NCBI GenBank assembly: GCA_965601925.1
Contig: OZ271854.1
Span: 4,192,001-4,256,000 of the forward strand
Direction: 5' to 3'
Source: Alkalispirochaeta sp.
GTDB taxonomy: Bacteria > Spirochaetota > Spirochaetia > DSM-27196 > Alkalispirochaetaceae
DNA: 64,000 nt
In this document: in pieces, positions 33,713 to 42,095 of the stretch
Layout: each line of letters opens with the position of its first letter
Position numbering within the stretch: the first letter of the stretch is position 1
Notes under the pieces: model-generated
The model's input: the letters and a program-made list of their open reading frames with translations, nothing else
Told to the model about the DNA's origin: nothing
The model's database searches: none
Program-made: the position numbers and the translations under genes

Positions 33713-33786
<74 letters not shown>

Positions 33787-33911
33787 TCTCTAAATCATTA
33801 CGATGAAATGATTTAGGATAACCAAAAGCAAAAACAGACAGCCGTTTCACCTCAAATACTGAGGGGTGGCAGCAAAATGGCAGCAAGTCAGTTTGCAAAG
33901 GACGCGGCAGC

Positions 33912-34077
33912 TTGAAAGGCGCGCGGACTCCCTATCCCGACCCTTTCCTCCGCTCCGATCGTGGTGATGTCTATTACTTTACATACGTAGATCCTCGTAC
34001 CGGTACTCGGAAAATGAAGTCTACCGGATGCTCTCGGAAGGCAGACGCCGCGAGAGAGATAAAGAAGTTCGTCGATG
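33912..34077 (+). pseudogene. N-terminal fragment of a tyrosine integrase, truncated by an IS
   Basis: Translates MKGARTPYPDPFLRSDRGDVYYFTYVDPRTGTRKMKSTGCSRKADAAREIKKFVD, an arm-binding-domain pattern (YY..Y....G.R...STG....A); runs into the IS end at 34078. Confidence 0.7.
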
Positions 34078-34093
34078 TGACCTGCCCCTGAAA

Positions 34094-34939
34094 CTAGACC
34101 ACCGCTTGAGTGAGTCCGTCCTCAAACCTTCGCCAGATTTCTTCCGGCGTGTGATTGCCGAGCGAGCTGTGTGGCCGGTACCGATTGTACTCATCACGCC
34201 ACTCGGCCAGTTTTTCTTGCGCATCGGTCACGCCCAAGAACAGATTCTCATTGAGGAACTCGTCGCGTAGCTTTCCGTTGAAGCTCTCGACAAACGAGTT
34301 CTCGACCGGCTTGCCCGGCGTGATCAAACACTGCTGAATGCCGCGCTGGATCGTCCACGCGATCACAGCCCGGGATGTAAACTCCGGCCCGTTGTCGCTC
34401 TTCACGCATTTTGGCTCACCATGCATGATCATCGATTGCTCCAACGCTCGGATGACATCAACGCTGGTACATGTCCGAGCGATTCGTGCTGCGACCAGAT
34501 ACCATGTGTATTCATCCAGCACGACCAAACACTTCAACGACCGTCCGGATTCAGTCGTGTCGAAAACGAAATCCAATCCCCAGATCTGGTTCGGCCGGAT
34601 CGCGACACCAGCCCGATTGCGCTGCACGATGAGCTTCTTTCGGCGTCGTGAGCGGAGCATCAACCGCTCTTCGTAGTAGATCCGATACACCTGCTTGTGA
34701 TTCGCTTCACTATGGTCTCGCCGCAGTAACACGTGGATCCGCCGATACCCGAACCGCCTGTGCCTCTCTGCCAGCTCCTTGATGCGCGCCCGAATCCGAA
34801 GATCGTTCGGGTTCTTTGCCTCATACCGACAGGTCGATCGATGCAACGACGCCAGTTCGCACGCTCGTCGCTCACTGACCCCATGGTGTTTCAACGCCCC
34901 GACAGCCGATCGTCGCTGATGAGGCGTTATCAGTTTTTT
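34094..34939 (-). CDS. IS3 transposase OrfB (DDE), reached by -1 frameshift
   Basis: SERRAC, FGYRRI, WGLDF, SDNGPEF, PGKP.EN.FVESFNGKLRDE, YNRYRPHSSLG; the -1 frame is open from the A6C motif (KLITPHQRR..). Confidence 0.92.
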   Translation of the reverse strand, partial: KKLITPHQRRSAVGALKHHGVSERRACELASLHRSTCRYEAKNPNDLRIRARIKELAERHRRFGYRRIHVLLRRDHSEANHKQVYRIYYEERLMLRSRRRKKLIVQRNRAGVAIRPNQIWGLDFVFDTTESGRSLKCLVVLDEYTWYLVAARIARTCTSVDVIRALEQSMIMHGEPKCVKSDNGPEFTSRAVIAWTIQRGIQQCLITPGKPVENSFVESFNGKLRDEFLNENLFLGVTDAQEKLAEWRDEYNRYRPHSSLGNHTPEEIWRRFEDGLTQAVV

Positions 34940-35193
34940 GACAGCACCTCCTTCATCGCGTCAATCTCAAGCGCCTGGTTGGCGACCAACTTCTTTAGTC
35001 TGGTGTTCTCGTCTTCCAGTTCTTTCAGCCGTCGCGCCTCGCTGGTTGTCATTCCGCCATAGCGAGATTTCCATCGGTACAACGTATTTTCCGCAAACCC
35101 GTACTTCCGACAGATCTCCTTCACCGGAATACCGGATTCGACTTCCCCTAAGATCGCAATGATCTTCTCAACCGAATACTGACCCTTCTTCAT
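34930..35193 (-). CDS. IS3 transposase OrfA (HTH)
   Basis: ICRKYG..ENTLYRWKSRYGGM..SEARRLKELEDENTRLKKLVA. Confidence 0.93.
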   Translation of the reverse strand: MKKGQYSVEKIIAILGEVESGIPVKEICRKYGFAENTLYRWKSRYGGMTTSEARRLKELEDENTRLKKLVANQALEIDAMKEVLSKN

Positions 35194-35449
35194 GTTGTCT
35201 CTCCCTCCTATTATACCGGGAAAAACTCACCTTCTTGCTGGACCAGTTTTGTGGGAGCAGGTCAAGACAACGATGATTTTACGTTGTTGAGAACTGGATC
35301 AGTGACCTTCATACCGGATCCTGGCGTGCTCGGATTTGCTTGCCGGAACTTGCAAATCTGATTGAAGGAGTTATGCAATGTCACTCTCCTAATGAGACAT
35401 CGTATAGTAGGATGACGTCATCATCGGGATTTAGTGAAGTCTACCGCTG

Positions 35450-36652
35450 CTACTCTCGAAGAAGCGCAGCACGTTCTTCTTCAGGGCTCTTCCCCTGGTG
35501 TTTACTCTGCCACTCGTCGTCACCTATGAGCCTGCCGGAGAGCCTATACTCGTGGAAAAGTCTCTCCAGAACTCCGTCTCGACCTTTTATAGCGTATGGT
35601 TCAACAGCAGCCTGAGTTAGGTTTACTCGAAACTCAACGAGCAATGAATACTCTACATCCCACTGCTCCCTGACATCTCCCCGGCTATTCTGCCATTTGA
35701 TACATAGATCGATTTCTTTGAGCATAGATGCGAACTTTGCGTATTCAGTCTCGTCGATTCTTCGAAAAAAGAAACAGAAAAAACTCACGGCAGTGGCACG
35801 ATTTCCTATGCGGAGCCCTTTTTCTCGTGAGGCTATTGCTAACTCTTTTAAAAGTTTTTCTGCTTCACTGACATGGCTTGAGAGCTCTTTATCCTCTTTC
35901 TGATACGCAAGAATGAAACCCTGCAAATCCTGGAAACGTGCACGACTGAAGTCCTTTTTCTTTCGAAGACTGATCGCTTGTAGCAGGATCTGCGCCGCGA
36001 CTTGTTCTTTGGCGTATCTTCGATACGGAACACCCAATTGTGAGAAATACGTCATGGGTGATATGCGATTGAATACCTGTTCTTTCATCCATCCGACCAT
36101 AGCATGAAGCTTCTCGCCAGCATTAAGAGGCTGCGCTAACTGCAGCCGAGCGAACATGAGATTCAACTCTTGCTTGTGATCAACAGAATCCACTATGACG
36201 ATACTGACAGACACATCCTTTATTTTGTCTCGATACTGCTCCAAACAAGTCGAAGGGCCTTCATCAAGCAGCAACTGGGACTGTTGCATATCTTGGGGAT
36301 CTACTAAAAACTCTTTGCAGCCGTTTGGTAGCGACTCATTGTATACTTCATTTTGCCGTTCATATTTGAACTTCAAATCTTTTTGGAGACCTTCCGTCGA
36401 TGAGTGCACTATGCCAAAGAATGTGAAAATAGTTGTCAGTCTTTGGCGACCATCTATGCAATCATAGCGGCCGTCCTCTCGTTCAAAAAAAATGATAGAA
36501 GAAATATCGAGGCCACGATAAAGAGAGTCTATTAAAAGGGATCGTTTCAGTGGCTGCCAAACATTTGGCTCCCTCTGGTACTCAGGAAACTCAATAAGAG
36601 GTGCCTGATGAAGCAATTCTTGGATAGTCCATGATTTGTTCACTCTCTTCAT
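35450..36652 (-). CDS. DUF262 (ParB/Srx-fold, GmrS-like) domain protein
   Basis: PEYQRE..W, LIDSLYRG, CIDGRQRLTTI, MFARLQLAQPLN..E; C-terminal ~200 aa unrecognised. Confidence 0.85.
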   Translation of the reverse strand: MKRVNKSWTIQELLHQAPLIEFPEYQREPNVWQPLKRSLLIDSLYRGLDISSIIFFEREDGRYDCIDGRQRLTTIFTFFGIVHSSTEGLQKDLKFKYERQNEVYNESLPNGCKEFLVDPQDMQQSQLLLDEGPSTCLEQYRDKIKDVSVSIVIVDSVDHKQELNLMFARLQLAQPLNAGEKLHAMVGWMKEQVFNRISPMTYFSQLGVPYRRYAKEQVAAQILLQAISLRKKKDFSRARFQDLQGFILAYQKEDKELSSHVSEAEKLLKELAIASREKGLRIGNRATAVSFFCFFFRRIDETEYAKFASMLKEIDLCIKWQNSRGDVREQWDVEYSLLVEFRVNLTQAAVEPYAIKGRDGVLERLFHEYRLSGRLIGDDEWQSKHQGKSPEEERAALLRE

Positions 36653-36664
36653 ATGTTCCCCTGA

Positions 36665-37726
36665 CTAATCGGAAGTATACGCATACAGTTTTTCCATGAC
36701 TTGCTCTATGTGATGTTGCTCCGGTGAGCTCTTGCGCAAACTCCAATATCTGTACGAAAGCCATCCCTTGGCATGAAACGCTTTCGTATTGTCGAGACCA
36801 CAATACTCCATACAGAAATCAGTGAAGTCATCATTTTGATCGAGTGTTCTAGCATCGAAATAGGGATAGTCTTTTTTTATTTCTTCTGATCTTTCTTTTC
36901 CAGAAATAACTTCAACGATAGGCTTCCTTCCGTTTTCAAAAGCCACAGCGTCGAAAAGTAATGCAGATAGATGTCGGTCTGCCGGGTTGAGACCACAACC
37001 GACAACACGGATAACATCCGCGGATAGTAACTCTCGAGATCGTCCCATCAACAGGTTGAAGGGATAACGATCGAAAGCCTTGGACGCTCCCGGTGCGATC
37101 CATGTGGTTAACGGATCTTCAACCACGCCGTCCTGCCAAGTGGGAGGCGTGCCTGCCTTCCAGTTATACGATCCGTGCAATTTGATTATTGCCCAACTAG
37201 TAACATCATCTTTGCTTAGAGCATCGTACACTTCTCCGTATGCGCGCTCTGCGAGAGTGTCATAATTAAGCGAAATCGCACCAGCAAACTCCTCGTCATG
37301 AAATCGTTCGCCATTCTTGTGCCAATCAAACAACGCGGTGTAAAAATCTACAGGACGAGGATCTGTGTCATCTTCGTAATACCCCGTCGCAGATTCAATC
37401 CTCTTTGAAAGAACCTCTAAGAAGCACTTACGTAGCGATTGCGACTCCTCGATCGAGTAACGGTTACCTGATTGCTCAAGCAAATAAATAAGTTCTTCTA
37501 AAGGTTTGTAGGGCTGTTCTCCGTCATCGTTCGCGTTGCTTTCAGCTGTGCCCCAAGTTGTAATCGCAATCGGACACTTCTCCCTGAGTTCGTCATCGTC
37601 ACCAATCTGCAGGTGTATAGCTTCGGCGATATCCTTCGTTAATACTTTCGTCGAGCCGGCGCCCAAGTCATATACCGCTTGCTGTGAGGCTCCGGCGCCG
37701 AAAATGTAAACAACTTTGGTTCCCAT
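36665..37726 (-). CDS. SIR2-like (SIR2_2 type) NAD+-binding protein, putative NADase
   Basis: VYIFGAGAS, SLNYDTL, IKLHGSYNW, VVGCGL..AD; start ATG 37726 overlaps the methyltransferase stop (TAATG). Confidence 0.8.
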   Translation of the reverse strand: MGTKVVYIFGAGASQQAVYDLGAGSTKVLTKDIAEAIHLQIGDDDELREKCPIAITTWGTAESNANDDGEQPYKPLEELIYLLEQSGNRYSIEESQSLRKCFLEVLSKRIESATGYYEDDTDPRPVDFYTALFDWHKNGERFHDEEFAGAISLNYDTLAERAYGEVYDALSKDDVTSWAIIKLHGSYNWKAGTPPTWQDGVVEDPLTTWIAPGASKAFDRYPFNLLMGRSRELLSADVIRVVGCGLNPADRHLSALLFDAVAFENGRKPIVEVISGKERSEEIKKDYPYFDARTLDQNDDFTDFCMEYCGLDNTKAFHAKGWLSYRYWSLRKSSPEQHHIEQVMEKLYAYTSD

Positions 37727-38964
37727 TACTTGCTGAACTCCAAAACGAGCTCCGTCTCTGACCGAGAAGTCGCCTGTTTCCAACTGGACTTGTTTAGCAT
37801 AATCATAGAATGCTTTTTCGGAAACTTCCATATTTTTATTGGCCGCAACCCTGAAGCTTCGATCATCTCTGAGATGATTAAATCTAATTTGATTTCATGT
37901 TGTTTATAGTGGGAACGCTCGAGCACCATGTACCCGTGCCCCCCGTCTCGGAGCACCCTTGATATCTCACGAACTGATTTTTGAATCTCGACGAAGTAGT
38001 TTCCGAAAAACTTTGCGTAATACGTGCCAGAAGCCTTAGATTGATGACCGCAAATAGTAGCCATCGTGGCACGAGCGGTTTCGGACTGAATTGTTGTCCA
38101 ATCGGCTTTAGGTCGGCCGCTGATCAACACAGAGCCAAGCATTTTCCGTCGAAGCTCTCGCTCTTCATCAATCAGTAATGGGTAAAAAATCGCGATCTCG
38201 GGTGATGTCATCCTGACGTAATCGATCCTGGTGCAATAGGGAGGTGAAGTGATAACAAGGTCTATTGAGAAATCATCCAGGGGGACGTTGTTCGAGTTTG
38301 CCGTCAGTATGACCGGTTCGACAAAGCGTTCACTTCTTCGAGAGTCATCGAGAATGATGTCCATGAATGGCATCTCAGTAAGTCCAGTGAAAAAAGTGTC
38401 ACTGCTAAGCTGCATCCGAGGAGATATCTCTTTTAGTGGTATCCATGTGGGATTCTTAGATACTTTACGTCTCAAAGAGGCTCTAATGAACTGTGCCACT
38501 AAGAGACCGATTGCTAAAGCGTACTCCGTCAACCTTGATTCAGCGAGGCCTAAAAAGATCCTTATTGCGGCAACTGACTCTGGTTCAAACCAGAAAAGAA
38601 GGGGATCTCCCTCTTTGATATCCGACTTAAAAAAGTCTACTTCATCGATCAACTTCTTTAGATGCTTTTCAGTGATACCCGAGCACGTCTCCGCCTGTAA
38701 TCGCGCTTGAGCGACTACACACATAACTGGGTTTAGGTCAATTCCTATAGACTTTATGCCTCTTCGCGCTGATATCAGCGTGGTGGTACCACTTCCGTTC
38801 CATGGGTCCAAGACCGTTCGAGCTTCATCACAATGAGATTCTAAGACTGACTCTACGAACTCCTCGGAGAAACCCGCGTAGTATCGATAGCTCTGTCCCT
38901 TGTTACTGACCAGGATGATGGGTGATGCCGGTTCTCGATTAAATCCGCGGACGATATCAAACAC
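37726..38964 (-). CDS. DNA amino-methyltransferase, probably m4C, alpha-type motif order
   Basis: YRYYAGFS, motif I VLDPWNGSGTT, GIDLNP, motif IV ITSPPY, EISRVL; start uncertain (GTG 38964 or TTG 39048). Confidence 0.88.
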   Translation of the reverse strand: MFDIVRGFNREPASPIILVSNKGQSYRYYAGFSEEFVESVLESHCDEARTVLDPWNGSGTTTLISARRGIKSIGIDLNPVMCVVAQARLQAETCSGITEKHLKKLIDEVDFFKSDIKEGDPLLFWFEPESVAAIRIFLGLAESRLTEYALAIGLLVAQFIRASLRRKVSKNPTWIPLKEISPRMQLSSDTFFTGLTEMPFMDIILDDSRRSERFVEPVILTANSNNVPLDDFSIDLVITSPPYCTRIDYVRMTSPEIAIFYPLLIDEERELRRKMLGSVLISGRPKADWTTIQSETARATMATICGHQSKASGTYYAKFFGNYFVEIQKSVREISRVLRDGGHGYMVLERSHYKQHEIKLDLIISEMIEASGLRPIKIWKFPKKHSMIMLNKSSWKQATSRSETELVLEFSK

Positions 38965-39271
38965 TATGAGACGATACTCGACGAGTACACTTTTGTCATG
39001 TCTCCGGTTTAGCAGAAGCGGTTTGGAGTAATCATGATCCTGCCGCAAAAACAGCCGGCGTCATCGGCCTGAACATACTCGCTATTCGAAATCCCGACGA
39101 CATGATTCATAGGCCGCAACCTTGGCCGGGCATATCTGGTTAGGCCGGTGGAAGAGTGAGGGGCCCCCTTTTGCCTGACCACCGCGTCGTGTACCTACTG
39201 GGCGCCGGCGCGAGGCCGTGGTGTCGTCTGCGTGGTTTGCGGGCGAAAAACCCGTAGTGTGGTGTCAAACG

Positions 39272-39484
39272 CTATTGACGCTCGTTATCAACGGAAAACG
39301 GATCCTCAACCTTTTGCAGCTCATCGAGATGGAAGAGTTCGTCTTTGACTTCGTTATCTACGAACCAGTGACATTCCGCACCAGGATCGAATTTCATATA
39401 TTTCCCTATGCCCATTATGGTCATCTTCGGACCGCCGCTCTTGAGAACGACAACATCGCCTACTTTTAGATCTGCCATAGTCAA
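39272..39484 (-). CDS. YodC/DUF2158 family small protein
   Basis: LKVGDVVVLKSGGPKMTI..C.WF..F....L; ATGA overlap with the upstream gene. Confidence 0.85.
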   Translation of the reverse strand: MTMADLKVGDVVVLKSGGPKMTIMGIGKYMKFDPGAECHWFVDNEVKDELFHLDELQKVEDPFSVDNERQ

Positions 39485-40104
39485 AACTCCTTAAAAAAAC
39501 CTTTTACTTCGCGATTCATGACGAGGCCGGCAACGACAAGGGCGGATACAAGCGACCGATATCGCACAGAGTAAAACGAGAACACTCGTGACTGTGGATC
39601 AATACCATACAGCTCCAACTGAAACTTACTCATCTGTTTGATCAGAGATACTACCTCAACGAATCCAGGGTACGCCTCTATTGCTGCGCTCGACACGCTC
39701 TTGATATGCCGGTCAATGTACTCGCGTTTGGACTCTACTTGGTGTCCTAACGCTTCCAGTACGTACACAAGGTCTCTAATGCGTTCCGCTCGCTGTGTTT
39801 CTTGTTTTCTGACCTGTTCCGTTTTTTGGTAGTGCCGTATCTCTTGTCTCTGTAACCACAACGCGGCTATGAGCGCCACAAGTGTAAGAAAGGCAAACAG
39901 AGTCCCAACGGTGCCGCCGACGTAGGCCCCGAAGTTCCCCCAATCATTCTGATCTACAGAAAGACCGCTGCGGAAAATCGAAAAATAGATCCATAACGGC
40001 ATCAATATGATGCCGAGAATACCAACGGCAATGAGAGGAACGACAATGGTTTTGCGTATCGTCGTCTTTGCATTGACATTAGACTCGATCAGATGTCCTT
40101 TCAC
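39481..40104 (-). CDS. Two-TM membrane protein with a putative Abi-like N-terminal hairpin
   Basis: DWGNFGAYVGGTVGTLFAFLTLVALIAALWLQRQEI followed by a coiled coil. Confidence 0.65.
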   Translation of the reverse strand: MKGHLIESNVNAKTTIRKTIVVPLIAVGILGIILMPLWIYFSIFRSGLSVDQNDWGNFGAYVGGTVGTLFAFLTLVALIAALWLQRQEIRHYQKTEQVRKQETQRAERIRDLVYVLEALGHQVESKREYIDRHIKSVSSAAIEAYPGFVEVVSLIKQMSKFQLELYGIDPQSRVFSFYSVRYRSLVSALVVAGLVMNREVKGFFKEF

Positions 40105-40259: not shown

Positions 40260-41276
40260 TTATTGATTCGGGACGGTGGTGGACGTGCCTGTCGGCCTAC
40301 CCATCCTTACACCTCGGTAGGCTGGCGCAGTGTCTAATCCTTGGCTATGGCGCTCGTTTCTCTCAGCCTCTTCCTGGGCTTTTCCGGCTGCTTCATATAG
40401 TTTTTCCTTAATGTAAAGATCCATATTTCGATTTAACGCGTTGTCTACTCCTCCGGAACCGAACTGGCTTCCTGTCATCTGTACCACAGCCTGCGCGGTA
40501 GCAAACTGCCCGACAAGACTCCTTGCCCGGGCGCCAGCTAATAGCATCACCTGTTCCTCCTCTGGAACACTAAACAACGGCACAACCGCCCCGGAGCTTG
40601 TCCGAACGAGGTCTCTGCTCCCGAGCGCGGCGGCTTCGAATCGTTCTTGTTGCGCCGCTGATACACGGTTAAACTCTGCGATTTCTTCGCGGCCAACGTA
40701 CTGCTGTCCCTGAATCATCGTACAGCTGCTGGCTTCCAAGATATGTGGATCCGTATGACGAGGATCACAGTCTGCTCGGTATGATTCGTTTTCAACACAC
40801 CCTTCTCCACCGTTTTGGCAGTCAACCCCTGAAATCAGAAGACGTAAATACGGCTCGTCTATCTGATCGACGGTGTGATCATTGGCTAAGGGCCGCCAGT
40901 CGAAACCTTCGGGGTTTTCTCGAGCACGATCAATCTGATCAAACATTGCTCGCATTGATGTATCGATGTCTTGCGCACCTATGTCGCCAATATCTCTGCG
41001 TACCAAGATGACACTATAGATCTCGTAGTCTCCTAAGTCGACGGAATGCTCGGCATCTAAGAGCGTCTTCATGAACTCGCTGTACTCATCGCGTGTGAAC
41101 AAATCGGCCACCGCCTCGTAATGTTCGGAAGAAGCGAAGTCGAAAGCTGTCTCGTCGTTATCAGTGGATCTGAATGGCTCGGAACCTCGTGCTGACGCAC
41201 AAGAGAACAGGATTCCGAGGCATCCGATACAAACAAGGGCCGTGATGGATCGAGTGATATGAACTACAGTCTTCAT
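40260..41276 (-). CDS. Hypothetical lipoprotein
   Basis: RBS AGGAGG, MKT...ILFSC spirochaetal lipobox, long open frame. Confidence 0.7.
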   Translation of the reverse strand: MKTVVHITRSITALVCIGCLGILFSCASARGSEPFRSTDNDETAFDFASSEHYEAVADLFTRDEYSEFMKTLLDAEHSVDLGDYEIYSVILVRRDIGDIGAQDIDTSMRAMFDQIDRARENPEGFDWRPLANDHTVDQIDEPYLRLLISGVDCQNGGEGCVENESYRADCDPRHTDPHILEASSCTMIQGQQYVGREEIAEFNRVSAAQQERFEAAALGSRDLVRTSSGAVVPLFSVPEEEQVMLLAGARARSLVGQFATAQAVVQMTGSQFGSGGVDNALNRNMDLYIKEKLYEAAGKAQEEAERNERHSQGLDTAPAYRGVRMGRPTGTSTTVPNQ

Positions 41277-41356
41277 GAGCATTCCTCCTGATTCAGATTG
41301 TACTACCGGTACCGTGAGAAACGAAAGCAAAGTGAGGCGCGTGATATGGTTTATCC

Positions 41357-41686: not shown

Positions 41687-41699
41687 CCGAATGGGCCCA
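41687..41699 (+). repeat. attR core, direct repeat CCGAATGGGCCCA
   Basis: Duplicate of the tRNA 3' end. Confidence 0.85.
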
Positions 41700-41738
41700 A
41701 AAAAGAGGATCGGCACATTCGTACCGATCCTCTTTTTT
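41699..41738 (+). terminator. Bidirectional intrinsic terminator, probably the original tRNA terminator
   Basis: A6-GAGGATCGG-CACATTCGTA-CCGATCCTC-T6 immediately after attR. Confidence 0.85.
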
Positions 41739-42095
41739 GTGGCTGGAACCGTTCGGACTTGAAACGGAATGTGCGCCGAGCGATAGCGAGGAAAAGCGGA
41801 CACGACGTCCGCGGCAGCACACGGAGGCGGACCGGAGCGAGCCCTCGTGCGGAGGGTGACCGAGTCCTACGACGTATCACATCGACACTCCGCCGTTGCC
41901 GCTTAAAGGACCGTTCGGATCTCGTCTCTCAAAACGTGCGGCCGACATGCAACTATTTATATAAAGTATGTCTCATCACCTATTACTCCTTTACTGTCTT
42001 TCAAAGTTCTTTCAGCCGCATGTAATTACAAACAACGCCTGTTTTTCTCGTAATTCCTCCTGGACGGTCGGACGCACACTCGTTATTGTTTCGGC

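Follow-up and report, generated by a model that had tools for sequence, protein, structure and literature searches.

Why would a DNA methylase, a SIR2 protein and a DUF262 protein be encoded one behind the other in a bacterial genomic island, and what could the three do together? The question is raised by an Alkalispirochaeta sp. (assembly GCA_965601925.1, contig OZ271854.1), in which the three genes occupy positions 35,450 to 38,964 of the window, that is, of the whole 64,000-nucleotide stretch analysed (contig positions 4,192,001 to 4,256,000). A first-pass annotation, made from the sequence alone, had proposed a candidate undescribed anti-phage system of three co-oriented, AT-rich genes. 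The genes are indeed intact and all on the minus strand, have a GC content of 46% against 60% for the genome, and form a unit that is single-copy in the 5.05-Mb host genome. The overlap between the methylase stop and the SIR2 start (TAATG at 37724-37728) is as annotated, and so is the 12-nt spacer between the SIR2 and DUF262 genes, TCAGGGGAACAT, which holds its own Shine-Dalgarno-like GGGGA. Comparison of homologous loci shows these genes to be a mobile unit, conserved across many phyla and archaea, and very probably a methylation-linked SIR2 defence or addiction unit.

The linkage of the genes was assessed in two sets of homologous loci. The genome set comprises 50 loci in GTDB genomes found by DUF262 alignment alone, and the metagenome set the best 80 of 311 stretches found by SIR2 alignment alone, several contigs of which are duplicates; neither search selected for the other genes of the unit. 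The genome loci come from Chloroflexota, Bacteroidota, Actinomycetota, Pseudomonadota, Acidobacteriota, several archaea and others. SIR2 lies upstream of DUF262 in 45 of the 50 (3 are unassessable and in 2 it is absent), with a gap of at most 30 nt in 43 of these 45 and an insertion sequence (IS)-family open reading frame (ORF) interrupting the remaining two. Of the 80 metagenome loci, all 69 that are assessable have DUF262 downstream of SIR2; the other 11 contigs end early. A methylase with an SPPY motif lies no more than 500 bp away in 38 genome loci, and another 4 have one at up to 5.3 kb; the remaining 8 are six loci with short flanks, one with C5 methylases (L035) and one fragment (L049). 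In the metagenome set 53 loci show a methylase, its SPPY visible in 48 and cut off in 5; the flank is short in the other 27, some of which (L105, L121 and L126) have a long upstream side without a methylase. The conserved synteny that the first-pass annotation had named as a check is thus seen, with SIR2-DUF262 in 45 of 47 assessable genome loci and an SPPY methylase in 42 of 44, and the co-occurrence of the three genes is far above chance. No fourth gene recurs among the neighbours of homologous loci, nor does a clean-up hydrolase like MisB of the Metis system.

The unit is distributed sporadically. Among 401 genomes of the host phylum there are three DUF262 matches: the window, one full methylase-SIR2-DUF262 locus and one HNH-bearing relative without SIR2. 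In viral contigs the module is rare (1 locus), and in plasmids a tblastn search with SIR2 found no match and the search with DUF262 only an N-terminal fragment. The SIR2 family forms 209 clusters at 50% identity (E<=1e-30), mostly from uncultured lineages, and this might explain why screens have overlooked it.

All the motifs named in the first-pass annotation are present, and the proteins suggest what each gene contributes. The SIR2 protein carries GAGAS, NYD and KLHGS, and its N154 and H184 are invariant across 76 relatives. The first matches of its structure model (predicted local distance difference test, pLDDT, 83.9) are the SIR2 proteins of SIR2-HerA systems (E ~1e-7, template-modelling score ~0.45). 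As modelled, it has the fold of a defence NADase, which is clear despite the weak score for Pfam SIR2_2 (E 0.011, under the cut-off), and it is predicted to destroy nicotinamide adenine dinucleotide (NAD+). Its profile also matches KomC weakly (E 0.022); KomC is the NADase of a modified-nucleotide-sensing system, Kongming.

The methylase (Pfam PF01555, E 5e-13) has the motif order DPWNGSGTT (motif I) first and TSPPY after, and its alignment with 18 relatives starts near GTG 38964. SPPY is a typical signature of N4-cytosine enzymes, and a haloarchaeal virus relative carries the annotation 'N4-cytosine Mtase'. The enzyme, a member of a clade that partners DUF262 modules (class A), is therefore predicted to mark cytosine as N4-methylcytosine.

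The DUF262 protein matches PF03235 above the Pfam cut-off (E 7e-16, residues 12-182) and carries the motifs Y25-Q26-R27 and D67-G-R-Q-R71. DG.QR is conserved in 97 of 98 relatives (as DGRQR in 82), and the QR of YQR is invariant. These motifs correspond to Y30-Q31-R32 and DGQQR of SspE, described as the mark-sensing cavity and a pocket, respectively (PMC9646914). The structure model (pLDDT 84.5) matches BrxU, SspE, DndI and ParB, and aligns lengthwise to BrxU 1-462, SspE and DndI (Z 8.4, 8.5 and 6.8; root-mean-square deviation 7-14). Beyond residue 160 it is all-helical, and it terminates where the aligned region of BrxU stops (462). This middle domain is likely equivalent to the helical domain of BrxU and SspE, likely rather than proven because the Z scores of 8.4-8.5 are modest and the deviation is high; the helical middle domain is reported as DNA-binding in SspE and NsnA (PMC12065111). 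Pfam found no HNH/DUF1524 nuclease in the DUF262 protein, the adjoining genes are SIR2 and an IS, and the DUF262 profile found no meaningful match among PDB sequences.

The first-pass description of a three-gene unit holds as to conservation, but only two of the genes are fixed. Over 58 loci the similarity of SIR2 is correlated with that of DUF262 (rho 0.84), and that of the methylase much less with either (0.33 and 0.21). On the DUF262 tree the methylase class changes 16 times (71 labelled rows) against a shuffled mean of 33, which indicates both inheritance and repeated methylase swapping. Two DUF262 proteins that are 87% identical (L012 and L017) have methylases of different families. The partners are of class A (the window type), B2, B1, C and E, plus C5 enzymes (L035, L173), and diverge to ~25% identity and in motif order. 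Class B1 is BsoBI-like, with the restriction endonuclease (REase) present at 4 loci, and class C has the beta order, with an XhoI REase at 4 loci and an unclassified protein at 2. No adenine DNA methylase was found by motif scan as sole partner at any assessable locus, and adenine-type methylases occur within 500 bp only alongside an adjacent SPPY enzyme (L059, L128). From the alignments and motifs, then, the fixed core appears to be SIR2 and DUF262, and the methylase can be exchanged, at assessable loci only for another cytosine enzyme.

The first-pass proposal that SIR2 and DUF262 replace the restriction nuclease agrees with the nuclease-less DUF262 protein and with the fold of SIR2, but the pair does not do so everywhere, and the methylase is in some cases that of a complete type II R-M system. 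Among the first 131 loci at least 9 have a type II REase of the XhoI, BsoBI or BsaWI family beside the pair. The idea that the pair is never beside a nuclease was rejected on the strength of this minority of loci. The two recurrent families are XhoI and BsoBI (4 loci each), the sites of which, CTCGAG and CYCGRG, overlap; that one site is shared by all loci was rejected on account of BsaWI-C5 and HNH-C5 partners. In the window island itself no cognate REase was detected beside the methylase by Pfam, PADLOC and genome checks. The unclassified protein beside class C methylases (L011:5684-6643, L116:9-740) has no Pfam or PADLOC match; it shows a PD-(D/E)xK-like pattern by eye and is probably an unannotated restriction endonuclease family.

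Some homologous loci are arranged differently. In one (L023:3072-9083) a single class A methylase lies between two DUF262 arms, one an NsnA-like DUF262 with a 211-aa unknown gene and the other SIR2-DUF262, divergent on the opposite strand. In another (L004:252-9164) the class A methylase is parted from SIR2-DUF262 by four co-oriented genes, which may be a further defence system lodged within the unit: 275-, 389- and 472-aa unknowns and a 441-aa SF1 helicase. The module can also sit between Mod and Res of a type III restriction-modification (R-M) system (L019, L092/L118). At L094/L096/L104/L124 (for example L094:2518-3768) a second DUF262-like protein converges on the module; it has 417 aa, looks circularly offset and matches the Pfam profile at positions 136-198 alone. 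At L175:5260-7082 a DUF262 relative without HNH or SIR2 comes directly after an FRG-domain gene, which might be a third kind of effector partner.

How might these parts work together? We suggest that the three genes form an R-M-like abortive-infection system in which unmarked DNA triggers SIR2 via DUF262, a reading that we consider evenly poised between right and wrong. What is seen here in its favour is the linkage, the conservation, the folds, the intact catalytic motifs and the exchangeable cytosine methylase. The methylase would put N4-methylcytosine on the host's own sites, and the nuclease-less DUF262 protein would bind DNA and discriminate marked from unmarked sites. By analogy with SspE, on marked DNA nucleoside triphosphate (NTP) hydrolysis would free the DUF262 reader; on unmarked DNA the reader would remain bound, and the bound state would recruit or assemble SIR2. 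Unmarked phage DNA would in this way turn on SIR2 and the destruction of NAD+, the loss of which, as in other SIR2 systems, would arrest the infected cell. Next to a type II R-M system, the pair would rely on the methylase of that system and form a second barrier after its nuclease. Discrimination on DNA is favoured because DUF262 keeps a DNA-binding architecture and an SspE-like cavity and because REases with overlapping sites recur. Unmarked DNA is favoured as the trigger because an undirected toxin is most simply held off by a self mark, as in AbiR.

Several observations weigh against this reading. In SspE the mark arms the effector rather than silencing it (PMC9646914). In a control set of independently found XhoI REases (30 loci, 24 distinct after 6 duplicates were dropped) the partner is an SPPY enzyme in 7 of 24 and an NPPY enzyme in 17, and beside the pair it is SPPY in 4 of 4 (Fisher P = 0.016, with kin that are not independent; P = 0.098 against the 9 genome loci alone). 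Selection for cytosine chemistry at XhoI loci is thus suggestive, not firm. The two C5-linked DUF262 proteins group together (SH-aLRT 85), and both this and the XhoI bias agree no less well with a protein that reads the mark, or methylated nucleotides, than with one that the mark blocks. CTCGAG is not avoided in 308 cassette genes relative to synonymous shuffles (observed/expected, O/E, 1.01, rank 46/64); its O/E in the host genome (0.76, rank 5/64) is too generic to use. Finally, a frameshifted methylase lies beside an unbroken SIR2 at four distinct loci (L099/L110, L112, L080 and L010), with DUF262 also unbroken where the contig holds the whole gene. If unmarked DNA is the trigger this combination should be lethal, but these assemblies look error-prone.

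Two models in which the mark is read positively stay alive, owing to the C5 grouping and to the restriction of the partners to cytosine enzymes. It is conceivable, if doubtful, that DUF262 is a positive N4-methylcytosine reader that acts on fragments or nucleotides of degraded host DNA and gates the SIR2 NADase, which would make the unit the predicted cytosine counterpart of Metis, built from unrelated parts. In the Metis-like form of this idea, which we judge unlikely, the phage degrades the marked chromosome, and the ParB-fold pocket of DUF262 takes up the released methyl-deoxycytidine nucleotides or short marked fragments, which switches SIR2 on. That cytosine methylases are the only partners, from at least five SPPY groups and the C5 enzymes, would then be expected, as would the favouring of N4-methylcytosine at XhoI loci, and the weak match of SIR2 to KomC points the same way. 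The Metis preprint itself foresees systems that sense cytosine and bring along a methylase of their own (10.1101/2025.11.05.686725). However, DUF262 retains the helical middle domain that is reported to bind DNA in SspE and NsnA (PMC12065111), no MisB-type hydrolase recurs, and the recurrence of the same two REase families would be needless for a site-blind nucleotide sensor. Six-base sites would also give little signal (2,529 CTCGAG against 41,562 GATC in the host).

The second model, SspE-type licensing, has DUF262 armed by N4-methylcytosine on self DNA and a separate infection cue that fires SIR2. It would account for the conserved SspE cavity and pocket motifs and for the bias in cytosine chemistry, and would tolerate methylase frameshifts beside intact pairs. 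We nevertheless hold it to be improbable, as an undirected effector armed by an ever-present self mark requires a second trigger and there is no conserved fourth gene. Also quite improbable, it seems, is that the unit is mainly a guard or addiction module, in which SIR2 and DUF262 would watch over the methylase or the R-M system and kill any cell where its activity is lost or inhibited, protection from phages being a secondary role. The pair is sporadic as well as mobile (with 2 true loci among the 401 host-phylum genomes) and at some loci tied to R-M cassettes, and the toxicity of AbiR is a precedent (PMC13064643); but a guard at the protein level should track one methylase family, not partners as divergent in identity and motif order as these, and killing on loss of the mark is already a by-product of the system triggered by unmarked DNA. 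That this is not a defence unit, the genes being merely co-occurring island cargo or SIR2 a regulatory deacylase or ADP-ribosyltransferase, is very improbable given the near-perfect linkage over many phyla and a SIR2 fold closest to defence SIR2 proteins, even though few named defence genes adjoin the loci (most of 128 neighbour proteins lack a PADLOC match) and the Pfam score is under the cut-off.

If unmarked DNA is indeed the trigger, DNA-methylation self-marking would be linked directly to NAD+-depleting abortive infection with no nuclease. With its three genes the unit would also be a compact model in which to learn what DUF262 proteins without a nuclease respond to, a question that PD-T4-2, Menshen and Dazbog raise as well (PMC10952713, PMC12065111). 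If instead the mark is read positively, nuclease-less DUF262 proteins would be general epigenetic-mark switches with interchangeable writers and effectors (SIR2, HEPN). In either case the natural swaps, such as the 87%-identical readers with different methylases and the XhoI- and BsoBI-linked copies, are ready specificity material.

The unit lies in a 7.9-kb island (Table 1) that, as the first-pass annotation had it, is a tRNA island, bounded by tRNA-Met and a 13-bp repeat of its 3' end; this 13-mer occurs just twice in the genome. The 'destroyed integrase' of that annotation was not confirmed: the 87-codon open stretch in question (33822-34082), cut by the IS, matches nothing in Pfam, PHROGs, plasmids or the rest of the genome. 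The IS3-type element directly downstream of the DUF262 gene has two further genome copies, ~92% identical. A promoter and terminator scan was at chance level. The DUF2158 protein does not recur among the neighbour families of homologous loci, and the other cargo consists of a 207-aa membrane protein (39481-40104), the phage homologs of which (phrog_8999) have no assigned function, and a 356-aa lipoprotein-like ORF (40260-41330) with no matches. Directly past the att-like repeat is a strong 19-bp inverted repeat with T/A tails (41698-41739), likely the displaced terminator of the tRNA. Elsewhere the host genome encodes a second SPPY enzyme, which is class C-like (E 9e-46), and a methylase of the C5 type (C1:3254213-3255451 and 3703693-3705438), and CTAG is strongly depleted genome-wide (O/E 0.11, 450 sites).

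Table 1. Features of the island, in window coordinates
Feature	Position	Strand	Description
Methylase gene	ORF 39048..37726	-	predicted N4-cytosine, alpha-order amino-methyltransferase; likely start GTG 38964
SIR2 gene	36665..37726	-	353 aa, stand-alone, predicted NADase
DUF262 gene	35450..36652	-	400 aa, ParB/Srx-fold NTPase with all-helical middle domain
tRNA-Met	33713..33786	+	left end of the island
13-bp direct repeat of tRNA-Met 3' end	41687..41699	+	att-like, right end of the island
IS3-type element	~34072..35264	-	HTH_Tnp_1 ORF 34930-35193, rve ORF 34094-34894
DUF2158 small protein	39272..39478	-	other island cargo

How, then, does the unit compare with known systems? A nuclease-less DUF262 protein with a separate toxic effector is a design that it shares with the methylase-DUF262-HEPN cassette and with PD-T4-2, the second gene of which is HEPN. 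The methylase of the methylase-ParB/DUF262-HEPN (MAE_28990) operon belongs to the same class A clade as that of the window. In a class A methylase search, 13 of 17 viral-contig loci are methylase-DUF262-HEPN (1 has neither gene and 3 end at the methylase), as is a locus on a Roseomonas plasmid, and SIR2-linked and HEPN-linked methylases interleave on the tree (3 changes). Since the class A clade also serves this cassette, the window unit is an effector-swap variant of a known design. It differs in that SIR2 replaces HEPN, in the order methylase-SIR2-DUF262 and in the DUF262 family: the SIR2-linked and HEPN-linked proteins form separate clades that can be aligned over the N-terminal ~170 aa only, and the PD-T4-2_A family (PDLC04027) covers residues 22-80 of the window protein against 29-367 of the HEPN-linked one. 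The genome of the window and the first 131 loci gave no match to a HEPN query or profile.

The three-gene combination, which the first-pass annotation did not recognise as a named system, is a real, conserved and apparently unnamed unit. PADLOC and NCBIfam have no system-level match for it, the five supplements of the GmrSD paper contain no SIR2, and no methylase-SIR2-DUF262 system is described in the mostly open-access literature covered, though the Menshen supplement or Metis Table S3 might list one. Its novelty is qualified by published relatives, namely the methylase-ParB-HEPN operons (Anantharaman 2013, PMC3710099), PD-T4-2 (Vassallo 2022, PMC9519451), SspE and AbiR.

With SIR2-HerA (Nezha, PD-T7-2) the unit shares the fold, the catalytic N and H, and a stand-alone ~350-aa SIR2 with an NTP-binding partner. 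That partner is DUF262 instead of HerA, a methylase is included and SIR2 identity is only ~16-18%; no HerA ATPase adjoins SIR2, the next gene being DUF262 in every assessable metagenome locus. NsnA of Menshen (NsnABC), with its DUF262 and ParBDB architecture, is the best PADLOC match of the window DUF262 (E 7e-18), but the window has neither the ABC ATPase NsnB nor NsnC: an IS lies downstream of its DUF262 gene, and no recurring family does in the homologous loci. Metis also links methylation to NAD+ depletion, and its type III variants carry their own methylase, but it relies on PUA-like sensing of N6-methyldeoxyadenosine monophosphate and a calcineurin-like NAD+ diphosphatase, and its main text mentions no DUF262 or ParB (10.1101/2025.11.05.686725). 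A Pfam search matched no PUA, calcineurin or HAD domain on the three proteins. AbiR of Lactococcus (LlaKR2I methylase) has a ParB-like subunit, needs the R-M methylase and is toxic without it (PMC13064643); it differs in its sigma-like and SNF2/nuclease subunits and its lack of SIR2.

SspABCD-SspE, DndI and BrxU/GmrSD have, like the window unit, a DUF262 NTPase with a helical middle domain, YQR and DGxQR motifs and coupling to DNA modification. In the window unit the HNH/DUF1524 nuclease is missing and SIR2 is a separate effector, and the mark is predicted to be methylcytosine placed by the adjacent methylase rather than phosphorothioate or a phage base modification. Of the six nearest DUF262 relatives without SIR2 that were checked, four have a C-terminal HNH, which suggests that SIR2 occupies the former place of the nuclease. 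The most fitting description of the module is thus a modification-coupled DUF262 switch, with a separate, predicted NADase in place of the fused nuclease.

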